From positions 18,190 to 82,189 of the forward strand of contig CAYXUJ010000003.1 of assembly GCA_964468395.1 (NCBI GenBank): 64,000 bases of DNA, written 5' to 3'. Shown one piece after another: positions 1,771 through 58,900 of the stretch. Positions within the stretch are counted from its first letter, which is position 1. Each line of letters starts with the position of its first letter. This DNA comes from an uncultured Steroidobacteraceae bacterium (GTDB taxonomy: Bacteria > Pseudomonadota > Gammaproteobacteria > Steroidobacterales > Steroidobacteraceae). The translations under genes were made by a program, and so were the position numbers. A model generated the notes under the pieces. That model saw nothing but the letters and a program-made list of their open reading frames with translations, was not told the origin of the DNA and searched no databases.

Positions 1771-2909
1771 AGGCGCCGCGGCCGGAACGCCTCGCGAGGC
1801 TGCTGCTGCCGTGGTTCGAGCGCCACGGACGACACGACCTGCCGTGGCAGGGCAACCCGACGCCGTACCGGGTCTGGGTGTCGGAAGTGATGCTGCAACA
1901 GACGCAGGTCGCAACGGCCATTCCTTATTACGAGCGCTTCCTCGCGCGCTTCCCCGATGTGGCGGCGCTCGCCGCCGCATCCGAGGACGAGGTTCTCGCG
2001 CTATGGTCCGGGCTCGGCTACTACGCGCGGGCGCGCAACCTGCACCGGGCCGCGCGGCAGGTCGTCGCGGAACACGGCGGCCGCCTGCCCGACACGCCCG
2101 AGGCACTGACCGCGCTGCCGGGCATCGGTCGCTCGACCGCAGGCGCAATCCTCGCGCTGGCGCACGGCCGCCGGCACGCCATCCTCGACGGCAACGCCAG
2201 GCGCGTGCTGGCGCGCGTGTTCCTGGTGCGCGAGACGCCGGCCGCGGCAGCGGCCGAGCTTTGGCGCCTCGCCGAGGCCTGCACGCCCCGGACGCGGGTG
2301 GCCGAGTACACGCAGGCGATCATGGATCTCGGCGCGACCGTGTGCACGCGCGCGGCACCGGACTGCGGGCGCTGCCCGCTGCGCCGGATCTGCGGCGCGT
2401 TCGCCGCCGGCATCGTCGAAGAACTGCCCGCGCGCCAGGCGCGCGCGCCGCGGCGCGGTCGCCGCTCGCATTTCGTGTTCGTCGTGCGCGGCCGGGACGT
2501 GCTGCTGCAACGGCGCCCGGCACGCGGCGTCTGGGGCGGCCTGTGGGCGCCGCCCGAGTTTCCGGATGCAGCGGCGGCCCGCAGCTGGTGGCAGTCGTCG
2601 TTCGGCGGCGGCGAAGCCGAGCGCCTGCCGACGCTGCGCCACGCGTTCACGCATTTCGACCTCGACATCGAGCCCTGGGTGCTGCCGTTGCGGCGCAAGA
2701 TGGCAGCGCCCGCCGGCTCCGGACTGCGCTGGCACGATCTGGGCGCGCCGTTGTCCGTCGGACTGCCGGCACCCGTGGCAAGATTGGTCGCTGGCGGCCT
2801 GGCGCAGGGCCGCGATGCGCGGCGGGAGGAGGGCGATGCCAAGAATGGTCCAGTGCGTGCTGCTCGGCCGCGAGGCGGAAGGGCTCGAGCGCGCGCCTTA
2901 TCCGGGTGA
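1767..2909 (+). CDS. mutY: A/G-specific adenine DNA glycosylase
   Basis: 380 aa. MutY N-terminus ([36 protein letters not shown]), HhH-GPD region ([19 protein letters not shown]), 4Fe-4S loop [17 protein letters not shown], and a C-terminal NUDIX-like domain. Confidence 0.9.
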
Positions 2910-3114
2910 GCTCGGCCAGCGCATCTTCGACAACGTGTCGAAGGAGGCCTGGCAGAAGTGGCTGGGCCACCAGACCATGCTGATCAACGAGTACCGGCTG
3001 GTGGCGTTCGAGCCGAAGGCGCGCCAGTTCCTGGTCGGCGAGATGGAGAAGTTCTTTTTCGGCGCCGGCTCGAAAGCGCCCGAGGGCTACGTCGATCCCG
3101 GCGCCGGGAGCTGA
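2836..3114 (+). CDS. yggX: Fe(II)-trafficking / oxidative-damage protection protein YggX
   Basis: 92 aa starting at the ATG at 2836. Near full-length match to the YggX pattern ([51 protein letters not shown]). The mutY-yggX order is conserved. An ATG at 2845 is an alternative start. Confidence 0.9.
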
Positions 3115-4472
3115 GGCGAGAGCGCCTCTCTCAGTCCCTGGCGGGTGAGCGCCACGATCACCGGCGACAGCGCGATCAGCGCGATCAGGTTCGGGATCGC
3201 CATCAGCGCATTCAAAGTGTCGGCGAGCTGCCAGGCGGTGTCGAGCTGCGTCACCGCGCCGGCGAAAGCCGCGCCGCACCAGAGGATCCGGTACGGCAGG
3301 ATCGCGCGGGCGCCGATCAGGAACTGCCAGCAGCGCTCGCCGTAGTACGCCCAGCCGAACAGCGTGGTGATCGCGAACACCGTGATCGACACGGCGACCA
3401 CCATGCTGCCCCAGCCGGGCAGCGCCGAGTCGAACGCGAGCTGGGTCAGCGCCGCGCCGGTCTCGCCACTGGTCCAGGCACCCGACACCACGATCGCCAG
3501 GCCGGTCATCGTGCAGACGATCAGCGTGTCGATGCAGGTGCCCATCATGCCGATCAGCCCGCTGCGGACCGCGCTGTCGCTCTGGCCAGCCGCCTGCGCG
3601 ATACCGGCGCTGCCGAGGCCCGCCTCGTTGGAGAAGATGCCGCGCGCGACGCCGAAGCGGATCGCCGCCATCACCGCGGCGCCGGCGAAGCCGCCGGTGG
3701 CGGCCACCGGCGAGAAGGCACTATCGACGATCAGCAGGAAAGCGGCGGGCACCTGTGCGGCGTGTGCCAGCAGGACCGTCATCGCCGCGACGACGTAGGC
3801 GACGATCATGAACGGCACGAGCCGGCTCGCGACCGCCGCAATGCGCCGGATGCCGCCCAGCACGACCGTCGCGGTCAGCGCGAGCAGCACGAGGCCGACC
3901 AGCGTCGGGTCGGCGCCGAAAGTGTTCCCGAGCGCGCTTGCGATCGTGTTCGACTGGACCATGTTGCCGATGCCGAAACCCGCCAGCCCGCCGAAGACGG
4001 CGAAGGCCACGCCCAGCCAGGCCCAGCGCTTGCCGAGGCCGTTCTTGATCGCGTACATCGGGCCGCCGACCGAGCGGCCCTCGGCGTCGCGCTCGCGGTA
4101 GTGCACGGCCAGCACGACCTCGCCGTACTTGGTCGCCATGCCGACCAGCGCGGTGATCCACATCCAGAACAACGCGCCCGGCCCGCCGAGCGCGATCGCG
4201 GTCGCAACGCCGGCGATGTTGCCGACGCCGACGGTCGCGGACAGGCAGGTCATCAGGGCCGCGAATGGCGAGACTTCGCCCGCCGCCCCGGCGTCGCCGG
4301 CGCGGCCGCGCCACATCAGCCGGAAGCCGGCGCCGATGCGGCGCACCGGCATCAGCCCGAGGCGCAGCTGCAGGAACAGCCCGGTGCCCAGGATCAGGGC
4401 CAGCATCGCCGGCCCCCAGACGAAGCCGTTGACGGCGCCCAGCCAGGCCTGGAGATCGGTCATCATGCGCAC
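3087..4472 (-). CDS. alanine/glycine:cation symporter (AGCS family)
   Basis: 461 aa polytopic membrane protein. AGCS-type motifs are present ([25 protein letters not shown]; [23 protein letters not shown]; [10 protein letters not shown]). Confidence 0.88.
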
Positions 4473-4489
4473 CGACTATGCCTGAATTC

Positions 4490-4519
4490 TTGACGGCTGC
4501 GCGCCCCAAACTGTCTAAT
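4490..4519 (+). promoter_or_regulatory. candidate sigma70 promoter for tRNA-Phe
   Basis: TTGACG (4490-4495), an 18-nt spacer, then TCTAAT (4514-4519). The site ends 17 nt upstream of the mature tRNA 5' end. Confidence 0.4.
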
Positions 4520-4536
4520 ACGCAGCCCCGAAATAC

Positions 4537-4612
<76 letters not shown>

Positions 4613-4647
4613 TCTTGCGAGCGGTATATTTGGCGGGGACTTTACGT

Positions 4648-5346
4648 CTAGTAGCCGAAGAACTCCTCACTGCGCACGTCGTCGTCACTGACCGCCGCAT
4701 TGGCTAAAAGCTGCCGCAGGGCGGCGACCATCAATGGGGAGCCAGTAACGTAGTAGATGGCGGCGGCGGCCTCCTTCTTGATCTTGCCAATCAGGTGACC
4801 ATCGATGCGACCCGCGCCGTTGCTGCGCGTCATCATCGGCACCAGGCGGAAATGCCTGTAGTTGCGCTCAAGCTCCTGCAACTCGGCCAGAAACGCGGCA
4901 TCCTCCGGACGATGGTTCGAGTAAATCAGGATGAATCGCTGTGGAAGCCGGTCACGCGCCGCCTGCCGCAGGATGCTCATGAACGGCGTGATGCCGATGC
5001 CGCCCGCAATGAACACCGCCGGCCGAGAGCGACTGGAATGCAGGGTCAGGGATCCGAACGGTCCATCCAGTCCTGCGGTCGAGCCGACCGGCATAGCCGC
5101 CAGGGCGTTCTTGAACGCACTGCTGCGAATGCGCGTCGCGATGGTGATCACGTCTTCGGACGGCGCACTGACTAGTGAGAATGCATGGCGTGCACTGGCC
5201 GGATCGGCGGATGGCCGTCCGCCCAGAACCAAGTCGATGGCCTGGCCGGGTTTGAAACTGAACCTCGCGGGCTTCTGAAAATGAAACGCCATGGTTCGAT
5301 CGGCAATCTCATCTCGACCCTTCAGCAGTACGTTGTGCGCAGTCAT
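4648..5346 (-). CDS. ferredoxin-NADP reductase-type FAD/NAD(P)-binding oxidoreductase
   Basis: 232 aa. FAD-binding beta-barrel motif (RHAFSLVS) and NAD(P)-binding motif (VFIAGGIGITPFMS). The start overlaps the folE2 stop by 4 nt (5343-5346). Confidence 0.75.
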   Translation of the reverse strand: MTAHNVLLKGRDEIADRTMAFHFQKPARFSFKPGQAIDLVLGGRPSADPASARHAFSLVSAPSEDVITIATRIRSSAFKNALAAMPVGSTAGLDGPFGSLTLHSSRSRPAVFIAGGIGITPFMSILRQAARDRLPQRFILIYSNHRPEDAAFLAELQELERNYRHFRLVPMMTRSNGAGRIDGHLIGKIKKEAAAAIYYVTGSPLMVAALRQLLANAAVSDDDVRSEEFFGY

Positions 5347-6152
5347 GCATCTGCCTTCGGTGGCCGAGCCAGGCGAGCAAAGGCGGAGTGGTTGTGGATC
5401 GACTCAAAGTTCTCGGCTTCGACCACAAAGGCGCGCACCAGTGGTTCCCGATTCAATTCGAGTGCGACGTCCCTTACGAGATCCTCCGCGAACTTCGGAT
5501 TCTCATAGGCTCGCTCGGTCACGTACTTTTCGTCCGCGCGTTTAAGCAAGCCATACACCTCACAGGACGCGCTGCGTTCGGCGGCCGCAATCAGGCTCTC
5601 GATTTCCATCTCGCCTGTGAGCTCCGCCTCGATACGAATGATCGAGCGTTGATTGTGAGCACCATAGGATGAAATCTCCTTGGAGCAGGGACACAAGCTG
5701 GTCGCTGGCACCGACACTCGTATCCAGAACGAGTACTGTGAATCCGCGAAAACTCGGCCGCGCCAGCAGACCTCGTAATCCAGCTGGCTCTGGATTCCTG
5801 ACACCGGGGCGGCTTTCGTCACGAAATACGGGAACCGCATCTCGATTTCGCCACTCGGCGCGTCGAGCCTGGCCAGCATTTCAAGCAGCAGCGCCTTGAA
5901 GCTTCGCTGATCCAGCGGCCGCGCTTGCGACTCCAACAACTCAACGAAACGCGACATGTGGGTGCCTTTCGTCGCCGCAGCCAGGCCTACGCTCATCGTG
6001 AACGTCGCGATGGTCGGGACAATGCGCCGACCCGCCAGGATCCGGATCGGGCAGCGAATGTCCCTGATGCCGACGGCCTCGATGCCCAGGTCACGACTGT
6101 CCGGTCGTGACTGGACATCGGGCAGGAATGCGATTGCGGCTGCCGGGCTCAT
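5343..6152 (-). CDS. folE2: GTP cyclohydrolase I type 2 (GCYH-IB)
   Basis: 269 aa. Carries the FolE2 signatures TSLCPCSKEISSYGAHNQRS, GTHMSRF and ENFESIHNHSA. Confidence 0.85.
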   Translation of the reverse strand: MSPAAAIAFLPDVQSRPDSRDLGIEAVGIRDIRCPIRILAGRRIVPTIATFTMSVGLAAATKGTHMSRFVELLESQARPLDQRSFKALLLEMLARLDAPSGEIEMRFPYFVTKAAPVSGIQSQLDYEVCWRGRVFADSQYSFWIRVSVPATSLCPCSKEISSYGAHNQRSIIRIEAELTGEMEIESLIAAAERSASCEVYGLLKRADEKYVTERAYENPKFAEDLVRDVALELNREPLVRAFVVEAENFESIHNHSAFARLARPPKADA

Positions 6153-6164
6153 GACCGTGGCAAC

Positions 6165-6812
6165 TCAGCGAAACTTTTCCGGGAACTGCTTCGCGATGCC
6201 GGCAGCCAGTGCATCGGCAATCACGTACATGTGATCCTTCATCGCGGCCCAGGTCTTTGCTTCCTGGTCGAACTGGCCGGCCTTGAACTGCTGGATCTGC
6301 TGCACGTGGTGGGAGCCGTGTGCATTCAGAAGGCCACGCAACGTGTCGACGGGCAAATACGGATTCGCTCCACCGAGAAATACCGCGATCTCATCGGCAT
6401 TGGCGAGAAGCCGCTTGAACGCGGCATCCTGGCTGGCCTTGCTGTCAGCGTGTGTGGCGTCGAGGTAGGTGCTGATGGCGCCCCAATGGCCAGCCAACAG
6501 CCCAAAGAGCTTGTCCGAAGCGGCCTTGCCGTAGAAAGGCTCGATCGACGCGGCAATCGCTTTCGCATTGGCGACCACCTGCTGCTCTGCGACCTTCGCT
6601 TCGTTCGTGTCGCCCTCGAGTCGCGCATCGACGACGTTGCGCACCCAGAAGACGTGCTCGAGCCACAGGTCACGCAGAGCAGCCCTGGTGTCGGCGAGCG
6701 TCTCGGTCGCGGCGGGCTCCGCCGAATGTGTCGTGTCTGCTGCGGCAAGGCCAGGAAGCGCCAGCGCCAGCGCTAGCACGGCGGAGAGCAATGGTCCGAT
6801 TGGGTGTCTCAT
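6165..6812 (-). CDS. secreted helical protein of unknown function
   Basis: 215 aa. Signal peptide (LSAVLALALALPGLAAAD) followed by helix-rich sequence with no family I recognise. Lies 12 nt upstream of folE2 on the same strand. Confidence 0.6.
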   Translation of the reverse strand: MRHPIGPLLSAVLALALALPGLAAADTTHSAEPAATETLADTRAALRDLWLEHVFWVRNVVDARLEGDTNEAKVAEQQVVANAKAIAASIEPFYGKAASDKLFGLLAGHWGAISTYLDATHADSKASQDAAFKRLLANADEIAVFLGGANPYLPVDTLRGLLNAHGSHHVQQIQQFKAGQFDQEAKTWAAMKDHMYVIADALAAGIAKQFPEKFR

Positions 6813-25294: not shown

Positions 25295-25461
25295 GGCCCT
25301 AGGTTACAGCGTCTACCGGCACTGTCTCATCGCCGCCCCGGGCCGCCCCAGGCCACGAATTCCGTCAAATCCGTCCCGCCGGTCCGCACACTGCGGCCTC
25401 CGTCACATTGTGACCGGCCATGGCCTGCCAACATTCTGTCGCCAACCGCGAGGTCGGGACC

Positions 25462-26355
25462 ATGGCGTTCGTAATCGTTTCCGCTGCCAACCTGGCGAGT
25501 TCCAAGCCGCGCACGCTGGCGATGCGCCCCTTGGCCGCCGTCGCGGGCGTGCTGGCGCTGGCCGGAATACTCGGCGGATTCGCCCTCGGTTACCAGGCCG
25601 GCCACGCGGCCGGCGGCCGCGGCGAAGGCGGCCTGGCTTACCTGGATGCCAACCGCCCCGGCGGCCAGGCACTGATCCGCGAGATCGGCAGCCTGTCCGG
25701 GCGCGTCATGCGGCTGGAGGCCGTCTCCGACCGCCTGGCGACCCGCATCGGCGCCGCGCGACCCTCGGCCGCGGCCCGTTCGCGGAGTGCCGATGCCGGC
25801 GCCCCGGCGGGCGGCCCGCTGATCTCGACTCGCATGGACGAGGGATTCCAGGGCGGCGCGACCCTGTTCCAACTCAACCTCGGCCTGGACGAGATCGAGG
25901 CGCGCCTTGACGCAGTCGCCTCGACGGTCGCGCGGCGCGACCTCGACGGGATGGCGTTCCCGAGTCGCTCGCCGATCCCGGGCGTGGCCGTGTCATCCGG
26001 ATTCGGCCCGCGCATCGACCCATTCACGCGCCGGCCCGCAAGGCATGCCGGTTTCGATTACACCGCGCCGCACGGCACCGCCGTGCTGGCGAGCGCCGGC
26101 GGGCGAGTGCGCCGCGCGGGCCCGTATGGCGCGTATGGCCGCACGATCGAGATCGACCACGGCGACGGTCTCGTGACCCGCTATGGCCATGTGTACCGGA
26201 CGCTGGTGAAGGTCGGCGACATCGTGCTGCCCGGCCAGGCCGTCGCGACCGTCGGCTCGACCGGCCGCTCCACCGGCCCGCACCTGCACTTCGAGATCCT
26301 GCGCGACGGGCGGCAGATCCACCCGGACCTGTACCTCGCAGGCGAGAACCCCTGA
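25462..26355 (+). CDS. M23 family metallopeptidase, bitopic with coiled-coil linker (LmdC-like architecture)
   Basis: About 297 aa; an ATG at 25420 is an alternative start. TM segment (LAAVAGVLALAGILGGFALG), a coiled-coil stretch, and a LytM domain with intact metal ligands (HAGFD...HLHFE). Confidence 0.85.
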   Translation: MAFVIVSAANLASSKPRTLAMRPLAAVAGVLALAGILGGFALGYQAGHAAGGRGEGGLAYLDANRPGGQALIREIGSLSGRVMRLEAVSDRLATRIGAARPSAAARSRSADAGAPAGGPLISTRMDEGFQGGATLFQLNLGLDEIEARLDAVASTVARRDLDGMAFPSRSPIPGVAVSSGFGPRIDPFTRRPARHAGFDYTAPHGTAVLASAGGRVRRAGPYGAYGRTIEIDHGDGLVTRYGHVYRTLVKVGDIVLPGQAVATVGSTGRSTGPHLHFEILRDGRQIHPDLYLAGENP

Positions 26356-26368
26356 CGCCCGCCGAGCG

Positions 26369-26731
26369 ATGAACCGCTTCATCGACACCGCCTGGCTGAC
26401 ACACGCGGACTTCAGGCCCACGGCGCCGCACCAGGACCGCCGCCGGCGGCAGATCGCCATCGGCGCGCTGGTCGCGGTGCTGATCGTCGGCGCCGGCCAC
26501 GGCTTTGCGGGCGACCTGTTCGCGAAGGCGAGCGACCTCGCGGCGCTGCGTGCGCAGCGCGACTCGCTCATCGCCGAGTCGCAGCGGCTGCGCACGGAGC
26601 TGGCCGTCGAGAGCGCCAAGCGTTACGAGCTCGAGCGGCACGCTGCCGACCTCAACACGCAGGTGGAAGAACTGAAAGGACAGGTGGAGTTCCTGAAGGC
26701 GCGCGGGGCGCGCGCCAGGATCCCCGAGTAA
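26369..26731 (+). CDS. small TM plus coiled-coil protein (unknown function)
   Basis: 120 aa. TM segment (IAIGALVAVLIVGAG) followed by a heptad-like region (LRAQRDSLIAESQRLRTELAVESAKRYELERHAADLNTQVEELKGQVEFLK). Lies between the M23 and bactofilin genes with 13-nt and 28-nt gaps. Confidence 0.6.
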   Translation: MNRFIDTAWLTHADFRPTAPHQDRRRRQIAIGALVAVLIVGAGHGFAGDLFAKASDLAALRAQRDSLIAESQRLRTELAVESAKRYELERHAADLNTQVEELKGQVEFLKARGARARIPE

Positions 26732-26759
26732 CATCACGCCGAAGTCCGAGGACTGACCC

Positions 26760-27194
26760 ATGTTTCGCAGGAAAAACACGATGGCCATCGACGCCAGCCG
26801 GCTGGCGGGACTGCTCGCGCACGACACCAGCGTCCGCGGCGACGTGACGTTCGCCGGCGGGCTCAGGATCGACGGCCGGGTCGAGGGCAACGTCGTCGGC
26901 AAGCCCGACGACCGGGGCCTGCTGGTGCTGAGCGAAAAGGGCGTCATCGTCGGCACCGTCAAGGTGCACGACGCCGTCATCAACGGCCGCATCGAGGGCG
27001 ACCTCGAAGTCGGGCATTTCCTCGAGTTGCAGGCCGGCGCGCGCGTGACCGGCAACATCAGCTACCGGACGATGAAGCTCGACTGCGGCGCCACGGTGGA
27101 CGGCAAGCTGGTGCGCGTCGGCGACGATCCGGCGGCCGCGGCGGATGGCGGCGCCTCGTCAACGAAGGTCCTCGCGTTCTCGAAGTCGTCCTGA
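26760..27194 (+). CDS. bactofilin family cytoskeletal protein
   Basis: 144 aa with a GAGGA SD-like site. DUF583 beta-helix repeats are present (SVRGDVTFAGGLRIDGRVEGNVVG...GVIVGTVKVHDAVINGRIEGDLEV..LELQAGARVTGNISYRTMKLDCGATVDGKL). Confidence 0.88.
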   Translation: MFRRKNTMAIDASRLAGLLAHDTSVRGDVTFAGGLRIDGRVEGNVVGKPDDRGLLVLSEKGVIVGTVKVHDAVINGRIEGDLEVGHFLELQAGARVTGNISYRTMKLDCGATVDGKLVRVGDDPAAAADGGASSTKVLAFSKSS

Positions 27195-51779: not shown

Positions 51780-51945
51780 TCGTACTTGATCCCGTTCCAG
51801 TTGGTGGTCCGCGACCGATAGACGGCCACGGGACGGGACAGTTCCGCCTGCAATCGGCGTCCTGCCCGGGTTTGCTGCATTATACCGCGGTCCGGCCGCC
51901 GGACCGGTTGGCCGGGCCTGGTACCGAAAGAGGGGGGTCATCCAG

Positions 51946-52341
51946 ATGGTCAAGAAAGCGATCTCTTGGGGGCTGGTCGGTGCTTTCGCGCTGCTGTGGT
52001 GGTACGCGGGGCACCGCTGGCCGTACATCAACGTCCCCGGCAATCAGTGGGGGACGGTCTACATCATGTTCACGTTCATCAGCCTCGCAGTACTGATGCG
52101 CAGCCGGCAGGCGGCGGGAGCCGGCATGCTCGACGGGCTCGTGGGCACGGTCCGGGGCTTCCTGCCGGTCCTGCCGTGGCTTGCGCTCGCGATCATCGTC
52201 GCGCGCGGCATCGCCTGGCTGCTGCTCGGTGTCGTGAACCCGCTGGATCACTTCATCCACGCGGTGGTGGCCGTGCTCGTGGCTGGCTTTACGACCTCGC
52301 TCTGGTACGGCGCGATCGTCAACGCCGGCGACGACTCCTGA
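51946..52341 (+). CDS. small polytopic membrane protein (unknown)
   Basis: 131 aa, 4 hydrophobic segments, with a GAGGGG SD-like site. No family recognised. Confidence 0.5.
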   Translation: MVKKAISWGLVGAFALLWWYAGHRWPYINVPGNQWGTVYIMFTFISLAVLMRSRQAAGAGMLDGLVGTVRGFLPVLPWLALAIIVARGIAWLLLGVVNPLDHFIHAVVAVLVAGFTTSLWYGAIVNAGDDS

Positions 52342-52356
52342 CCGGCTCGCGGCCGC

Positions 52357-53385
52357 TCAGGCGGCCGCCGGGCGGAAATCGACGCGCGCGTCCGAGGCCA
52401 TGCAGTAGATCTCGACCGGGCGCACGCGGCCGCGCAGCACCAGCGGCGGCAGCTCGACCAGGCCGCTCGGCGGCGGATCGAGCGACTGCCGGACCGAGCG
52501 CGAGAACAGCGCTTCGCCCGCTCGCGCGCGTTGCACCAGGCGCGCGGCGACGTTGACGGTGTCGCCGATCAGCGTGTAGTTCGGCCGCTCGGGCGCGCCC
52601 ACGTCGCCGACGATCACGTCGCCGGCGTTGATGCCGATGCCGATGCCGGTCTCCAGCCCGAGGCGGGCCTTCCAGTCCGTCGCGAGGCGGCCGAATCCCG
52701 CGATCATGCCGCGCGCGGCGGACACCGCCCGCCCGCAGGCGTCGTCCGACGGCGACGGCAGGCCGAAGCCCGCCATCAGCCCGTCGCCTGCGACATGGAA
52801 GACGGTGCCGCCGTGCTCCGCCGTCACCGTCGCCAGCATCGAAAAGTAGTCGTTCAGGAGCGGCACGACCTCGGCAGGGCTCAGCCGCTCGGCGACCGCC
52901 GTGAAGCCGCGCATGTCGGCGAACAGCACCGTGCCCGACACGCGCGCATGGCCGATGCCGCTGCGCGCGCGCGCGGTGCAGCGGCAGGTTCCGAGCTGGT
53001 GCAGCTCGACCAGGTTGCCGGCCGGGTCGGCCAGGAACAGCTGCCGGGACTCCGGCCCGAGGCGGCCGTGCACGACGCGATAACGCACGGCGAGCCGGTC
53101 GAGCTCGGCCTGCGCCTCGTCGATGCTGGCGACTGCGAGCGCCACGTGCGGGGCGCCGGGATCGAAGTCGCCCGGCGGCCGCGACGCCTGCGGGGCGGCG
53201 AGCAGATGCAGCTGGGCATGGGGCCCGGCATTGAGCCGCTGGCCGTCGTCGGCGCGGTCCCAGGCGGCATGGTCGGGTTCGAGCCCGAGGACCTCGCGGT
53301 AGAAGCGCAGCGTCGCCGCGGCGGCCTCCGGCCCCGGCGTCACGCGCAGCGCCTGGTGGTGCAGCTCAGCGATCTTCAGGCTCAT
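52357..53385 (-). CDS. VOC (glyoxalase/dioxygenase fold) domain fused to class III adenylate/guanylate cyclase domain
   Basis: 342 aa from the ATG at 53385. N-terminal VOC domain (LHHQALRV.....FYREVLGL....HVALAV.....ADPAGNLVELHQ). C-terminal CHD domain (VLFADMRGFTAVAE...HVAGDGLMAGFG...IGINAGDVIVGDVG....YTLIGDTVNVAARL). The start overlaps the upstream gene stop (ATGA at 53382-53385). Confidence 0.82.
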   Translation of the reverse strand: MSLKIAELHHQALRVTPGPEAAAATLRFYREVLGLEPDHAAWDRADDGQRLNAGPHAQLHLLAAPQASRPPGDFDPGAPHVALAVASIDEAQAELDRLAVRYRVVHGRLGPESRQLFLADPAGNLVELHQLGTCRCTARARSGIGHARVSGTVLFADMRGFTAVAERLSPAEVVPLLNDYFSMLATVTAEHGGTVFHVAGDGLMAGFGLPSPSDDACGRAVSAARGMIAGFGRLATDWKARLGLETGIGIGINAGDVIVGDVGAPERPNYTLIGDTVNVAARLVQRARAGEALFSRSVRQSLDPPPSGLVELPPLVLRGRVRPVEIYCMASDARVDFRPAAA

Positions 53386-53741
53386 GGCGAGCCGTGCGGG
53401 TCGAACAGCTCGACCGTCAACTCCACGACGCGCTCGTCCCCGGCCGCCAGCGCGCCGACGCCGACCAGCTTGCGCGCGAGCTCGGCGCCCTTGGCGTCGC
53501 GGATCACGACGACGACGGCGTACTCCCCCGGCCCGTCCGTCGCCTGTCGTGACACCTGTCCCGCGACCTTCAGCGCGACCTTGCCGGCGGCTTCCGACTG
53601 CGCATCCTTGCGCGACTCGAAGCGCAGGTGGTGCCGGCAGGCAGGGCAGACCGCGGCGCTCTCGAGGATCGTCGCCCGGCAATGCGGGCAGGACCTCGTC
53701 TTGCCGATGGTCGCCGCGTTGCGGTTCATCGCGCGCGCCAT
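53382..53741 (-). CDS. zinc-ribbon protein with C-terminal beta-rich domain (unknown function)
   Basis: 119 aa. CPHC(x11)CPAC zinc ribbon near the N-terminus, followed by about 80 aa with no recognised family. Lies 3 nt downstream of the bactofilin stop. Confidence 0.6.
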   Translation of the reverse strand: MARAMNRNAATIGKTRSCPHCRATILESAAVCPACRHHLRFESRKDAQSEAAGKVALKVAGQVSRQATDGPGEYAVVVVIRDAKGAELARKLVGVGALAAGDERVVELTVELFDPHGSP

Positions 53742-53744
53742 GGC

Positions 53745-54242
53745 TCAGGCGCGACCGGCGCCTTTCGCGCTGCCCGTTTCGCTCCAGCCGAACTCGGCGC
53801 GGCCGCGCATGCGCGCGCCGCCCGCGACCGACAGCGAGCCCGCGTTGACGTCGCCGTTGATCACGCCCGTCTGGTGCAGCTCGACCTTGTGCGCGCTCTC
53901 GATGTTGCCCTCGATTTCGCCGGCGACGATCACGGAACCCGCGCGCACTGCGCCCGCGAGATGGGCGCCGGCCTCGATGGTGAGCGTGCCGTCCACGTGC
54001 ACGTCGCCCTTGAAGCGCCCGGCGATGCGCACATGGCCGGAGCCCTCGATCTTGCCCTCGAAGGTGAGCCCGGTCGCAATGACCGACTCCTTGGGTTCCC
54101 GGCGGGGCGCCGCAGCAGATGCGCCAGGGCCCGGGGACGGGCTCGGCACGGGCTCGGGCCGCGGGCGGGCGGCCTGCGGCGGTGCAGGCGGCGCCTCATT
54201 GGATTCGGCGTCTTTCGTCACGATGTCTTTCCAGATGGCCAT
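53745..54242 (-). CDS. bactofilin family protein (second paralog) with Pro-rich N-terminal tail
   Basis: 165 aa. Pro-rich tail (APPAPPQAARPRPEPVPSPSPGPG), then DUF583 repeats (ATGLTFEGKIEGSGHVRIAGRFKGDVHVDGTLTIEAGAHLAGAVRAGSVIVAGEIEGNIESAHKVELHQTGVINGDVNAGSLSVAGGARMRG). Confidence 0.85.
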   Translation of the reverse strand: MAIWKDIVTKDAESNEAPPAPPQAARPRPEPVPSPSPGPGASAAAPRREPKESVIATGLTFEGKIEGSGHVRIAGRFKGDVHVDGTLTIEAGAHLAGAVRAGSVIVAGEIEGNIESAHKVELHQTGVINGDVNAGSLSVAGGARMRGRAEFGWSETGSAKGAGRA

Positions 54243-54345
54243 GGCGGCTCCTCCGCGTGGGGGGACGCCAAGAGTAGCCAGTTAGGAGGCTGCCGGCGAG
54301 CCGCCTGTCGCCCTCCGGCGACAGCTGAGCGCCCGCCGGAGCCGC

Positions 54346-55728
54346 CTAGAAGAGGCCTGGCAGCCAGGCGTGGGTCGTCGCCAGCGCGCGGGAGAAGGGC
54401 AGCCTGAAGCCCGTCCGGGCCTTCAGGAACGGGGCGGCCGGGGCAGCCATGACCTGGCCGCAGGCCCCGGTGCCGAGCCAGGACAGGGCGGCGGCTGTCG
54501 AGCTCTCGGCCTCGTCCCAGGGGCTGCGCGTGAGGTCGTCGGCCGCCGCGCAGGCGAACGGCAGGGTCGGCGCGAGGCCGTCGAAATAGTCGCCCTCGCC
54601 GTCGGCATTGGTGACCTTGAAGGTGACCAGGCGCAGGCGCAGGTTGCAGCCGTTGAGATCGAACGCCGACTGCCCGACCGGCTTGCCGTAGGTGTCGGAG
54701 CCGACGATCGCCACCTCGATCCAGGGCTTCAGCGAGTTGATCACCAGCTCGCTGGCCGAGGCGGTGCTGCCCGTGGTGATGAAGGCGATGCGGACCGGCG
54801 CGACCGACTGCTGCTGGGACATGAAGCGGCGCACCGAGTCGTTCGACGACTTGCTGGCGTTGAAGCGCGTGAAGGAAAAAACATCGCCCGGGCTGCGGCC
54901 GAACGCGTGCAGGTCGCCGACCAGGTCGGCGATGCTGACCAGGCCGCCGCCGTTGTAGCGGAAGTCGACGATGAAGTACTGGATGCCCTGGGCGCGGAAT
55001 TGCGCATAGGCATCGCGCAGCGGCGTCTCGGCGGTCGAGATGAAGGTGCGCAGGTTGAGGTAGGCGACCGGCACCGAAGGATTGGCAGGCAGCGCCAGCA
55101 CCGCCGTGCCGCCGGCCGGCACCGGCGGGATCGTGACGATCGCTTTCGTGAACACCGACTCACGCTGCTGGCCGCCCGGCAGCGTGAAGCGCAGGCCACG
55201 CTGCACACCCTCGGTCGCCGGGCCGAAAGCCTGTTCGAGGTTCGGGTCGGTCGCCAGGATCGTGGCCATCGGCACGAAGCCGCTGCCTGAATCGACGTGC
55301 GTGATTTCCGCGCCCCGCACCAGGCCGCCGGCCGCGGCCGGGCTGCCTTCGAATACGTCCGGCACCCACAGGCGATCGGTGTCGATGCGCGTGCGGAATC
55401 CGAAGCCGATGAACTGGCCCTCCTGCAGGAACGAGCTGTCGGCCTGCGGCGTGGTCAGGTAGCTGAAGAAGCGGTCCTTGCCCTGCGCGCGCGCGGTTGC
55501 GGTCAGGTCGTCGAGCAGTTCGCCGGCATCCGCGTAGCCGGCGGTGTTGACCGAGGCCGGCAGCAGCTCCTGGAACAGGTACCAGTCGCGCGCCACGTCG
55601 AGCACGAAGTTCTTCTGCCGGGTCGCGGAACAGGAGCCGCCGGGGACGGCGGCGCCGTCGCCGCTGCCGCCGCCGCAGGCGGCGAGCAGCGTTGCCACGC
55701 AGGTTGCGGCCGCGGCCAGCAGCCTCAT
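54346..55728 (-). CDS. S41 family peptidase lipoprotein (PDZ plus tail-specific protease domain)
   Basis: 460 aa. Lipobox LLAAC, PDZ domain (VFEGSPAAAGGLVRGAEITHVD), and S41 motifs (DFRYNGGG; GSTASASE; TYGKPVGQ). Confidence 0.82.
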   Translation of the reverse strand: MRLLAAAATCVATLLAACGGGSGDGAAVPGGSCSATRQKNFVLDVARDWYLFQELLPASVNTAGYADAGELLDDLTATARAQGKDRFFSYLTTPQADSSFLQEGQFIGFGFRTRIDTDRLWVPDVFEGSPAAAGGLVRGAEITHVDSGSGFVPMATILATDPNLEQAFGPATEGVQRGLRFTLPGGQQRESVFTKAIVTIPPVPAGGTAVLALPANPSVPVAYLNLRTFISTAETPLRDAYAQFRAQGIQYFIVDFRYNGGGLVSIADLVGDLHAFGRSPGDVFSFTRFNASKSSNDSVRRFMSQQQSVAPVRIAFITTGSTASASELVINSLKPWIEVAIVGSDTYGKPVGQSAFDLNGCNLRLRLVTFKVTNADGEGDYFDGLAPTLPFACAAADDLTRSPWDEAESSTAAALSWLGTGACGQVMAAPAAPFLKARTGFRLPFSRALATTHAWLPGLF

Positions 55729-55738
55729 CGGTGCGCCC

Positions 55739-56887
55739 TCAGGCGAGCTGCGCGCCCAGCAGCTGCAGACGCCGGTGCTGCATGCGCAGCTGGTAGAGCA
55801 GGGCGCGCGTCTCGGTGCGGAAACTCGCCTCTTCCCAGCGCTGCACGATGCGCTCGCGCGTCTTCGTGTACCAGCCGTCGGTCAGCTTCGACCACTCGGC
55901 CAGCGTCGCGACGAACTGCTCGTACTCGCGCGAAACGAGCGCTCGCAGTTGTTCGATGTCGACGTGCGGCAGGGAGACGCTGCGCCGCGCCAGGCTCGCC
56001 TCGACGCGGCGGAACTGCATGGCGAGCCGCGCGCGCTGGATCGCGACCGCGGGCGTGCGCCGCAGCTTGCGCGTGATGCCGACCCACGACAGCGAGCAGA
56101 TGATCCACTTGCTCGGGTCCCACTGCCACCAGCGGATGCCGTTGCGGTAATCGTGGGCGAACTGGTGGTGGAAATTGTGGTAGCCCTCGCCGTAGGTCAG
56201 GAACGCGAGCCAGCCGTTGTCGCGCGCGCTGTGCTCGTCGCTGTAGGGCTGGCGGCCGAAGGCATGGGCCGCGGAATTGATCAGGAACGTGAAGTGGTGG
56301 CTCACGACCAGGCGCAGGACGCCGGCCAGCAGGAACACGCCCCACAGGTCGCCATGCAGCCAGCCGAGCGCGAGCGGCACGAGCACGTTGAGCCCGATCG
56401 CGAGCGGGTAGTAATACCGGTGCTGGAACGCCACCAGCGGGTCTTTCTGCAGGTCGCGGACGTTGCTGAAATCCGTCTCGCCGCTCGGGTAGCGCCGCAG
56501 CATCCAGCCGATGTGCGAGAACCAGAGCCCGCGGCCGGCCGAATACGGGTCGCGGTCGTTGTCGTCCACGTACTGGTGGTGATTGCGGTGGCCCGAGGCC
56601 CAGACCAGGACGCTGTTCTGCAGCGCCATCGCCCCGAGCAGCATGTACACCAGGCGCAGCGACCAGTGGGCGTCGTAGGTGCGGTGGGACCAGAGGCGGT
56701 GATAGCCGCCGGTGATCGCAAGGCCGTTCGCGTACAGCAGGACGGCGAACCAGACCCAGGCGGCCGTGCTGTAGCCGACGGCGAAACCGTACCAGGGCAC
56801 GACCACGAGCGCCGTGGCGAGCGTCAGGGCGAACATCAGCACGTTGACCCAGAGCAGGCGAGGCCGTTCGGCGACAGTCGAATTCAT
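55739..56887 (-). CDS. acyl-CoA (delta-9 type) fatty acid desaturase
   Basis: 382 aa from the ATG at 56887. Three His boxes are present (HRLWSH; HRNHHQY; HNFHHQF), with TM hairpins and a C-terminal helical extension. Confidence 0.88.
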   Translation of the reverse strand: MNSTVAERPRLLWVNVLMFALTLATALVVVPWYGFAVGYSTAAWVWFAVLLYANGLAITGGYHRLWSHRTYDAHWSLRLVYMLLGAMALQNSVLVWASGHRNHHQYVDDNDRDPYSAGRGLWFSHIGWMLRRYPSGETDFSNVRDLQKDPLVAFQHRYYYPLAIGLNVLVPLALGWLHGDLWGVFLLAGVLRLVVSHHFTFLINSAAHAFGRQPYSDEHSARDNGWLAFLTYGEGYHNFHHQFAHDYRNGIRWWQWDPSKWIICSLSWVGITRKLRRTPAVAIQRARLAMQFRRVEASLARRSVSLPHVDIEQLRALVSREYEQFVATLAEWSKLTDGWYTKTRERIVQRWEEASFRTETRALLYQLRMQHRRLQLLGAQLA

Positions 56888-56966
56888 CGGGAAATCCGCA
56901 ACAGGGGAAAACGGCCCCATTGTGGCCGATCGGGCGCGGGCTGGATACCCCGAATCCTGAGCCACT

Positions 56967-57284
56967 TCACTTTTTTGGAGCGAAAAGCGCCTCGAGAGCC
57001 TCTTTGGCGGACCGGGGATCCGGGGCGCCCGCGGCGCCGGCCGCCGGCGCACGGCCCGCGGCGGGCTCGAAATACCCGCAGAAATTGGCGCGCTCCTTGT
57101 CCTGCACCTCGTCCGCCACCGGTTCGGCGCAGCTTTTCGCCTTGCGGGTGTCGAAGAAGCGGCACATGCGGCACACGTGCAGCTCGGCGCGGCAGGCGCG
57201 GCATTCGTCCCGGCGCGCCAGCGGCAGCGTCAGCTCAGCGAGTGCTGCCCCGCACCTCCAGCAGGCCAGCGGCGGGGCGCCCAT
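56967..57284 (-). CDS. small double zinc-ribbon protein (unknown function)
   Basis: 105 aa. CWRC(x17)CRAC and CRMC(x13)C..(x16)C arrangement, with an Ala/Pro-rich tail. The start codon directly abuts the stop of the upstream gene. Confidence 0.55.
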   Translation of the reverse strand: MGAPPLACWRCGAALAELTLPLARRDECRACRAELHVCRMCRFFDTRKAKSCAEPVADEVQDKERANFCGYFEPAAGRAPAAGAAGAPDPRSAKEALEALFAPKK

Positions 57285-57799: not shown

Positions 57800-58900
57800 T
57801 CAGATCTCCCAGTCCGGTTTCCTGCCACTGTGCGCGTCGATCGCCTCGAACAGGGCGATCACCAATGCCCGCTCATCCTCGGTCAGCTCGGGGCGCCAGA
57901 CGTCGAACAGCAGTATGACCCGCGTCTGGTCGCTGTCGTTCCAGGCCTCGTGCTCGATGGTGTCGTCGAAGGCCCAGGCCTTGCCTTCGACCCATTCCCG
58001 AACGTCGTTGCCGACCCGGAAGCGGCAGCGGCCCGGCACGATCAGCGGCAGGTGGCAGACCAGGCGTGTGTTGATCAGCCCGTTGTGCGGCGGGATGTGG
58101 GCGCCGGGGCGCAGCAGCGAGAACAGGATCGACGGCGAGCGATAACGCACCTGGGCGAGCGGCGCATTGCGCAACGCCTGCATCGTCTTCGGGCAGCGCG
58201 CGGCGTTCTCCGGCACGGCCTCGCCGTTCTTCCACAGGTAGAACGCGCTCCAGGCCGGGTTGTTCAGCATCCCCATCTGGTCCTTGTAGGGGCGGTTGGC
58301 GTGGCCCTGGACGTAGGGTGCGAAGGCGTCCGGCTCGCGCATCACCTCCAGCAATTCGGCACGGATGTCGCCGGTCGCTGCCTCGACGTCGTCGAGCCAG
58401 GGGAACTGGCTGCGCTCGTAGAACTGGATCTGGGGCAGGCCGGGGAAGTAGTAGTACTTCGGCTCCTGCAGGTAGATGCGCTTGCTGCCGAGCACGATGT
58501 CGACCGATTGCGCGAAGCGCGGACTGGAGCGCTTCTCGTCGAAACCCTTCGCGGCCAGGCTCCGGCGCAGGTAGTCGCGGTACTCGGCCGCGTAGCGTTC
58601 GTAGATGCGCCGCGCCCGGGTCAGTTCCTCCGCCGTCGCGCGCGGTACGCCCGACGCCGGCGCCAGGCGCAGCGCCATCTGGTAGAAGGCGGTCGCGGAG
58701 CGCGCGTCGCCGGCGGCGGCGAAGCAGTCGGCGCGCTGGATCAGCGCCAGCAGGTTGCGCGGCTCGGCGGCCAGCAGGCGATCGAGTGCGCCCGCCACGT
58801 CGCCCGCGGCGGCCTGGGCGAACAGCTCGCGCGCTTTCTGGCCGTCGCCGCGCTGCAGGGCGACTGCGCCTGCGCTCGCAAATTCCGCTGAACCTTGCAT
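57800..58900 (-). CDS. TPR-repeat / aspartyl-asparaginyl beta-hydroxylase family protein (paralog 1)
   Basis: 366 aa. N-terminal TPR-like helices, then an AspH-type cupin domain (FPGLPQIQFYERSQFPWL...WSAFYLW...LRPGAHIPPHNG...DDTIEHEAWN). Confidence 0.82.
   Translation of the reverse strand: MQGSAEFASAGAVALQRGDGQKARELFAQAAAGDVAGALDRLLAAEPRNLLALIQRADCFAAAGDARSATAFYQMALRLAPASGVPRATAEELTRARRIYERYAAEYRDYLRRSLAAKGFDEKRSSPRFAQSVDIVLGSKRIYLQEPKYYYFPGLPQIQFYERSQFPWLDDVEAATGDIRAELLEVMREPDAFAPYVQGHANRPYKDQMGMLNNPAWSAFYLWKNGEAVPENAARCPKTMQALRNAPLAQVRYRSPSILFSLLRPGAHIPPHNGLINTRLVCHLPLIVPGRCRFRVGNDVREWVEGKAWAFDDTIEHEAWNDSDQTRVILLFDVWRPELTEDERALVIALFEAIDAHSGRKPDWEI

Follow-up and report, generated by a model that had tools for sequence, protein, structure and literature searches.

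Is a bactofilin gene that is closely followed by a gene for a small zinc-ribbon protein and by a gene for a sensor-cyclase fusion the scaffold of one cyclic-nucleotide signalling module, or is a smaller unit at work here? The question is raised by a 64,000-nucleotide (nt) stretch from a Steroidobacteraceae bacterium (GCA_964468395.1, contig CAYXUJ010000003.1); this whole stretch is called the window, and its positions serve as coordinates. A preliminary description of this DNA had treated the three genes as a single unit, with the zinc-ribbon protein, here named ZnR, as the obvious adaptor for the cyclase. With modest confidence, we believe instead that the locus would be a composite three-gene operon, in which an old and widespread bactofilin-ZnR core was joined once by a cyclase gene. 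The features concerned are the following.

53745-54242, minus strand: bactofilin gene, 165 amino acids (aa), with GGAGGAG 5 nt 5' of its ATG
53382-53741, minus strand: gene of ZnR, a zinc-ribbon and small beta-sandwich protein of 119 aa (CPHC...CPAC)
52357-53385, minus strand: gene of a fusion of a vicinal-oxygen-chelate (VOC) domain and a class III cyclase, 342 aa (PF00903 and PF00211)
52996-53385, minus strand: VOC domain (residues 1-130), from the conservation table and the alignment to 2p25
52978-52986, minus strand: Cys-Arg-Cys linker (C134, C136) from VOC to cyclase, from the homologue comparison
52405-52950, minus strand: class III cyclase catalytic domain (residues 146-327), from the alignment to solved cyclases and the conservation table
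54243-54345, minus strand: intergenic region of 103 nt 5' of the bactofilin gene, a possible promoter region

The three genes were packed as tightly as the preliminary description had stated, at the same coordinates. The bactofilin/ZnR junction reads TGA GCC ATG, with a 3-nt gap, and the ZnR/cyclase junction is ATGA, a 4-nt overlap at 53382-53385. The domain calls were also borne out by significant Pfam matches: PF04519 in the bactofilin (E=5.6e-25, residues 53-149, 87.9 bits against a cut-off of 27.9, profile positions 1-97 of 98), PF00903 Glyoxalase (E=1.1e-9, residues 22-128, 39.1 bits against 20.6) and PF00211 Guanylate_cyc (E=3.4e-21, residues 152-327, 76.1 bits against 21.9, profile positions 10-179 of 183) in the fusion. 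Judged by the hundreds of conserved homologues that each one has, all three open reading frames (ORFs) are real genes. The region at 54243-54345 is the sole sizeable gap adjoining the block and possibly holds its promoter; a sigma-70 consensus scan returned no promoter-like site in this gap, a terminator scan returned nothing terminator-like in it (such sites were at chance level overall), and an Rfam scan of 51800-56000 gave zero matches.

The bactofilin-ZnR pair was found far beyond the loci that carry a cyclase. An exhaustive HMMER search resolved the ZnR family into 256 representative clusters. Adjacency of ZnR to a bactofilin was found in 56 loci holding all three genes, in the ten loci returned by five look-ups of distant ZnR members, and in 74 of 74 informative loci from a metagenome scan whose queries were more distant again. 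The ten loci belong to three unrelated neighbourhoods, and 0 of them have a cyclase. The metagenome scan gave 80 loci; a bactofilin ORF, recognised by a bactofilin hidden Markov model, lies immediately 5' of ZnR on the same strand in 74, and in the remaining 6 the contig ends at most 150 nt from the ZnR match. Four of the metagenome bactofilins were checked against Pfam and all four were confirmed. A cyclase neighbour occurs in 0 of the 74 informative loci, where the genes 3' of ZnR are variable and often lie on the opposite strand. In each of the five members looked up (P0415, P0475, P0486, P0243 and P0477), ZnR starts 4 nt inside the end of the PF04519 gene. The nearest ZnR cluster outside the cyclase-bearing clade (P0241) has no cyclase 3' of it, and a closer relative (P0201, 75% identity) has all three genes.

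Members of the ZnR family were traced by exact-sequence look-up to cultured bacteria (Lysobacter capsici, L. enzymogenes and Pseudoxanthomonas). Others come from metagenome-assembled genomes (MAGs) labelled Casimicrobiaceae and others, these labels being unverified, as are the labels Nitrosotalea, Eisenbacteria, Phototrophicaceae and Gemmatimonadaceae on short MAG contigs. From these occurrences, the bactofilin and ZnR apparently form a deeply conserved, undescribed pair that is spread widely through the Gammaproteobacteria and may reach beyond them. Bactofilins are paired neither with a zinc ribbon nor with Lysobacter biology in the searched literature.

Two gene calls and one neighbouring ORF deserve mention beside these results. 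P0246 (227 aa) is an apparent frameshift-fused call that continues from ZnR into the beginning of a VOC domain, and P0315 (162 aa) is another, in which a bactofilin C-terminus runs into ZnR; both independently confirm the adjacency of the genes in other assemblies. At the pair-only locus L132, an ORF of ~1120 aa lies 3' of the pair on the opposite strand (2087-5458, minus strand); in it, phmmer recognised a domain like that of class III cyclases (E=5e-18), whose presence there is probably a coincidence.

A scan with the cyclase alignment, one genome per species, yielded 79 loci, and 56 of these hold bactofilin, ZnR and cyclase in the same order and on the same strand (hereafter the trio). They come only from Steroidobacteraceae or unclassified gammaproteobacterial MAGs, and the lowest identities among them are 59% for the cyclase, 64% for ZnR and 63% for the bactofilin. 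The spacing between bactofilin and ZnR ranges from -4 to +15 nt, and ZnR and cyclase overlap by -4 nt in 40 loci and by -10 nt in 9. Where enough sequence was available, the gene directly 5' of the trio is an S41 peptidase gene in 34, a desaturase gene in 13 and another gene in 1 of 48 loci, and the gene directly 3' is an FG-GAP gene in 37, another gene in 6 and a small membrane gene in just 6 of 49. Much of the wider neighbourhood is syntenic as well; thus, part of the conservation of the trio is inherited gene order. L069 and L072, which make up the most divergent lineage, keep the trio and its overlap, and the genes 3' of the block differ there. The cyclases of this lineage (264-266 aa, at 6001-6801) have lost the N-terminal VOC half and the CxC linker, with the catalytic residues intact.

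Among 133 ZnR-linked bactofilins placed in a neighbour-joining tree, the 57 that are cyclase-linked form one clade with 0 pair-only members inside. Because these loci make up one clade, the cyclase appears to have joined the pair once. Since the search that gave the trio loci was made with the cyclase, the tree shows a single origin of the cyclase linkage, not an absence of loss.

The bactofilin of the pair belongs to a distinct subtype. The window protein starts with MAIWKDIVTKD, continues as a Pro-rich tail to about residue 52 and a beta-helix at 53-149, and has EFGW in its C-terminal part. The N-termini of ZnR-linked bactofilins read MA[IL]WK (or MSIWK / MSLWK) or MA[LM]F, and EFGW follows the core domain in 109 of 114. 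The canonical membrane-targeting N-terminal consensus of bactofilins is MFSKKKK (PMC12448750), and the MAIWK bactofilin has no start of this type. A second bactofilin locus lies elsewhere in the window.

25420-26355, plus strand: M23 peptidase (PF01551, E=1.9e-30)
26369-26731, plus strand: coiled-coil-like protein, 120 aa
26760-27194, plus strand: second bactofilin, 144 aa, starting MFRRKNT (PF04519, E=1.2e-23)

By its gene content and the MFRRKNT start, which is a canonical membrane-targeting motif, the locus at 25420-27194 is a canonical M23-bactofilin locus, and it resembles the known LmdC/BacA-type arrangement. Since the window also holds this canonical locus, the bactofilin at 53745-54242 is a second, specialised one.

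Few clients or partners of bactofilins are known, and most of them are cell-wall enzymes or ParAB adaptors. The known modules include BacA/B-PbpC of Caulobacter crescentus, BacA with the M23 peptidase LmdC in Hyphomonas and Rhodomicrobium, and BacNOP-PadC-ParAB of Myxococcus xanthus. As in these modules, a PF04519 gene stands here beside the gene of its presumed partner, and PadC is a precedent for a soluble bactofilin adaptor. In contrast to them, the partner is a zinc-ribbon/beta-sandwich protein without a family assignment, the bactofilin has the MA[IL]WK and EFGW motifs instead of an MFSKKKK-type N-terminus, and the block includes no cell-wall enzyme. ZnR is therefore a concrete new partner candidate to study, and the pair is present in Lysobacter and Pseudoxanthomonas, which are cultured and genetically tractable.

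ZnR gave only zinc-ribbon matches in Pfam, all of them sub-threshold, and none above the cut-off in NCBIfam. C18, C21, C32, C35 and an H(H)LRF motif are invariant in the family alignments. In the AlphaFold2 model (mean predicted local distance difference test score, pLDDT, 72.5), residues 15-40 fold as a zinc knuckle and residues 55-113 as a beta-sandwich of four long strands; a Foldseek search of this model against the PDB gave no significant match, the best being generic beta-sandwiches (E=0.038). The family is proposed on four features, all of which were found: the CPHC...CPxC knuckle, H(H)LRF, the EY...VGVG beta-sandwich and a gene position directly 3' of a bactofilin. In many members, the five looked up included, the shared N-terminal domain of ~115 aa is followed by a long tail that is rich in Pro and Ala and has a basic end. 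The closest known proteins are of the FxLYD type (NF038353), which often combine a zinc ribbon, a transmembrane segment and a beta-sandwich. ZnR has a similar layout and a weak match at 59-108 (E=0.0035), but its 17.2 bits lie under the cut-off of 23, so that it is not a member, and no transmembrane segment is apparent in ZnR by eye (no predictor of such segments was used). Judged by its gene neighbours, ZnR is a general partner of a specialised bactofilin subtype and not a cyclase-specific adaptor. From strict adjacency and translational coupling, and from these only, we infer that it may be a cytoplasmic filament-binding partner.

More than 100 orthologues of the VOC-cyclase were found at 68-100% identity. 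The closest solved cyclase domains are those of Cya2 (2w01), CyaB (3r5g), CyaC (1wc0) and the photoactivated cyclases, with E values from 1e-19 to 2e-26. The metal-binding Asp residues that the preliminary description had seen in FADMRGFT and AGDG are D157 and D201, and the transition-state residues are N278 and R282. D157 is identical in 77 of 77 homologues, D201 in all but the frameshifted L074, and N278 and R282 wherever the frame is intact, the exceptions among the 77 being the cut or frameshifted L057, L065 and L074. This residue pattern argues for an active cyclase of unspecified nucleotide preference. At the two specificity positions stand H197 and T271. In the alignment, H197 falls on the Lys of CyaB (3r5g), which agrees with the earlier suggestion of a His at the adenine-specifying Lys position, and on the Glu of Cya2; T271 falls on the Thr of CyaB. 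This pair is conserved in the whole family except for Asn at 197 in L052 and L058. The pair is neither Lys/Asp or Lys/Thr, as for ATP, nor Glu/Cys or Glu/Gly, as for GTP, and the replacement of Lys by a conserved His at the purine-selecting position makes the product of the cyclase uncertain. It has been reported that XC_0250 of Xanthomonas is active despite non-canonical residues (PMC3770947).

Like the class IIIb cyclases (Spirulina CyaC, Pseudomonas aeruginosa CyaB, Synechocystis Cya2, bPAC/OaPAC), the window protein has both Asp, the Asn and the Arg, with an N-terminal sensor before the C-terminal catalytic domain; like CyaB, it has Thr at the second specificity position. It differs from them in the conserved His in place of Lys (Glu in the guanylyl cyclase Cya2) and in the VOC sensor domain. 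As the preliminary description had supposed, neither the fusion nor a link to bactofilins appears to have been described: the searched literature contained no precedent for a VOC-cyclase fusion and no bactofilin-cyclase link, and where listed papers on bactofilins also mention adenylate cyclase, this looks due to the two-hybrid assay. The conserved His/Thr cyclase subfamily and its VOC sensor are uncharacterised, and a new product or a new kind of input signal could come to light in them.

The VOC domain has conserved candidate metal ligands at H9/H10, H60, H80, E127 and H129. H9/H10, H80 and E127 align on the HH, H and E of 2p25, and the fourth position is Q58 or H60, not Glu. In this PF00903 fold with His/His/Glu at the metal positions, the domain resembles the small VOC metalloproteins (YaeR/SMU1112c type; 2p25; STM3117, 3huh). 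Unlike those, it lies below the NCBIfam cut-offs (26 against 140 bits), is fused to a cyclase and is partly dispensable in L069 and L072. The linker residues C134 and C136 are present in every full-length-VOC homologue except L067, L068, L070 and L071, which have G/H there; the linkers of L051 and L064 keep both Cys and read CSC and CEC. Both Cys are missing in the truncated-VOC or VOC-less forms L069, L072, L073, L075 and L076-L079. It is a reasonable inference from these positions that the VOC domain would be a metal- or redox-sensing, dimerising N-terminal domain.

Read from the gene structure, conservation, phyletic pattern and residue conservation given above, the trio proteins would bind, catalyse, sense and localise as follows. 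The core would consist of a specialised bactofilin (MA[IL]WK or MA[LM]F start, EFGW end) and a translationally coupled ZnR that most likely binds the filament directly, as a regulator or an adaptor. In one Steroidobacteraceae clade, the gene of a soluble VOC-sensor class III cyclase would have been gained once behind the pair and been translationally coupled to it since. The cyclase would most likely be an active class IIIb-type homodimer, whose dimerising sensor would be the VOC domain, which would bind metal, perhaps together with the CxC linker. It may share a process with the filament pair, of which it would be a client, an input or an output, and tethering by ZnR is only one possibility. 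We consider a functional coupling of cyclase and pair slightly more likely than not; direct tethering of the cyclase by ZnR seems improbable to us. We give equally little credence to the fuller picture, in which the pair is a new cytoskeletal module that tethers a metal- or redox-sensing VOC-cyclase at a defined cell site and the product is possibly a non-canonical cyclic nucleotide. If it were true, the module would be a prokaryotic scaffold for compartmentalised cyclic-nucleotide signalling; the clade with the cyclase is a natural setting in which to test whether bacterial cytoskeletal scaffolds can organise second-messenger synthesis.

Several observations weigh against a cyclase that works together with the pair. 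The trio loci were found through a cyclase search, so the cyclase is present in them by construction, and with a single origin its linkage is not cleanly separable from inherited synteny within one family. A further 22 loci hold VOC-cyclase homologues (48-60% identity) without a bactofilin partner, and phmmer, with a threshold as loose as E=10, found neither a bactofilin nor ZnR in their vicinity. They include full VOC-cyclase fusions, forms with a shortened or cut VOC (L058, L067, L068, L070, L071, L073, L075) and VOC-less forms (L076-L079). A trio-specific motif was sought in the C-terminal tail and the linker of the cyclase, and the motifs there are common to the unlinked homologues. The AlphaFold2 model of the VOC-cyclase, built on a 15-sequence alignment, reached a pLDDT of 51 and was unusable, and a single-sequence phmmer search with Escherichia coli CRP found no CRP-like protein that would bind cyclic nucleoside monophosphates (cNMPs) among the window ORFs. 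It may be, then, that the cyclase gene simply landed behind the pair, uses the promoter of the pair and acts independently as a soluble sensor cyclase, with the pair as the only functional unit. The single origin of the association and the absence of a trio-specific feature in the cyclase suit this explanation, as do the pair without cyclase in every other lineage and the homologous VOC-cyclases in unrelated contexts, such as L050, L053, L061 and L062, where the cyclase sits 3' of a large gene of ~720-750 aa. It accounts less well for the -4 nt ZnR-cyclase overlap in 40 of 56 loci, for a block that stays intact although the genes on both flanks change, and for the persistence of the trio in the divergent L069/L072 lineage. 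We regard it as a tentative possibility that deserves real weight. The opposite extreme, in which ZnR is an adaptor dedicated to anchoring the cyclase on the bactofilin scaffold so that cyclic-nucleotide synthesis is spatially confined, is in line with the gene order, the translational coupling at both junctions and the conservation of the block across loci. The length of ZnR could also be read in this way, since it is 111-120 aa in the trio clade and many pair-only members have long Pro-rich tails, but short forms are present in pair-only loci as well. Above all, ZnR stands beside a bactofilin in no fewer than 79 loci that lack a cyclase, so it is not cyclase-specific, and we consider this explanation unlikely. 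The view of ZnR as the obvious adaptor for the cyclase was accordingly not upheld, nor was that of the trio as the unit, because the pair is far wider than the trio and the cyclase joined once, in one clade of the bactofilin tree. The expected co-occurrence across genomes was found in part: the trio is intact in 56 loci, but there are also ZnR-bactofilin pairs without the cyclase and VOC-cyclases without a bactofilin.

Two further explanations concern the cyclase itself. The domain matches the PycC models of PADLOC (best E=2.1e-21) and has unusual residues at the purine-specificity positions, as would suit a Pycsar-like antiphage system whose cyclase makes a pyrimidine cyclic nucleotide upon infection. 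However, the PycC score of 74.5 bits equals the generic PF00211 score of 76 bits, the bactofilin and ZnR are without PADLOC matches, no adjacent effector combines a cNMP-binding domain with a transmembrane or TIR domain, and the locus lies in stable chromosomal synteny across the family and not in a variable island. With ZnR, bactofilin, an opposite-strand small membrane protein, FG-GAP and S41 as neighbours and a generic PycC match, this reading was rejected as hardly credible. It would also be very unlikely that the cyclase domain is degenerate and non-catalytic and the VOC domain the real enzyme. The canonical Lys is missing and the VOC metal-ligand positions are conserved, but the two Asp, the Asn and the Arg are identical in all intact-frame homologues of the 77, VOC-less relatives included, and in L069 and L072 it is the VOC domain that has lost one half, the cyclase domain being intact. 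The composite operon, with its old core and a cyclase added once, is the explanation that we retain.

The neighbouring genes in the window add the following features.

54346-55728, minus strand: S41-family peptidase lipoprotein, with a signal peptide and a LAAC lipobox-like motif, 103 nt 5' of the bactofilin
55739-57052: fatty-acid desaturase

The S41 peptidase was considered as a part of the module and was rejected, because 13 of the 48 trio loci for which upstream sequence is available lack it, as do all pair-only loci examined. On the other side of the block, a small predicted membrane protein (51946-52341, plus strand, 131 aa, no Pfam match) converges on the cyclase, with 15 nt between the stops. 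A second small Cys-rich protein is encoded at 56967-57284 (minus strand); it has 105 aa, several CxxC and no Pfam match, and is unrelated in sequence to ZnR. Its gene lies, in conserved synteny, between the fatty-acid desaturase gene and a gene like those of Asp/Asn beta-hydroxylases (57800-58900).

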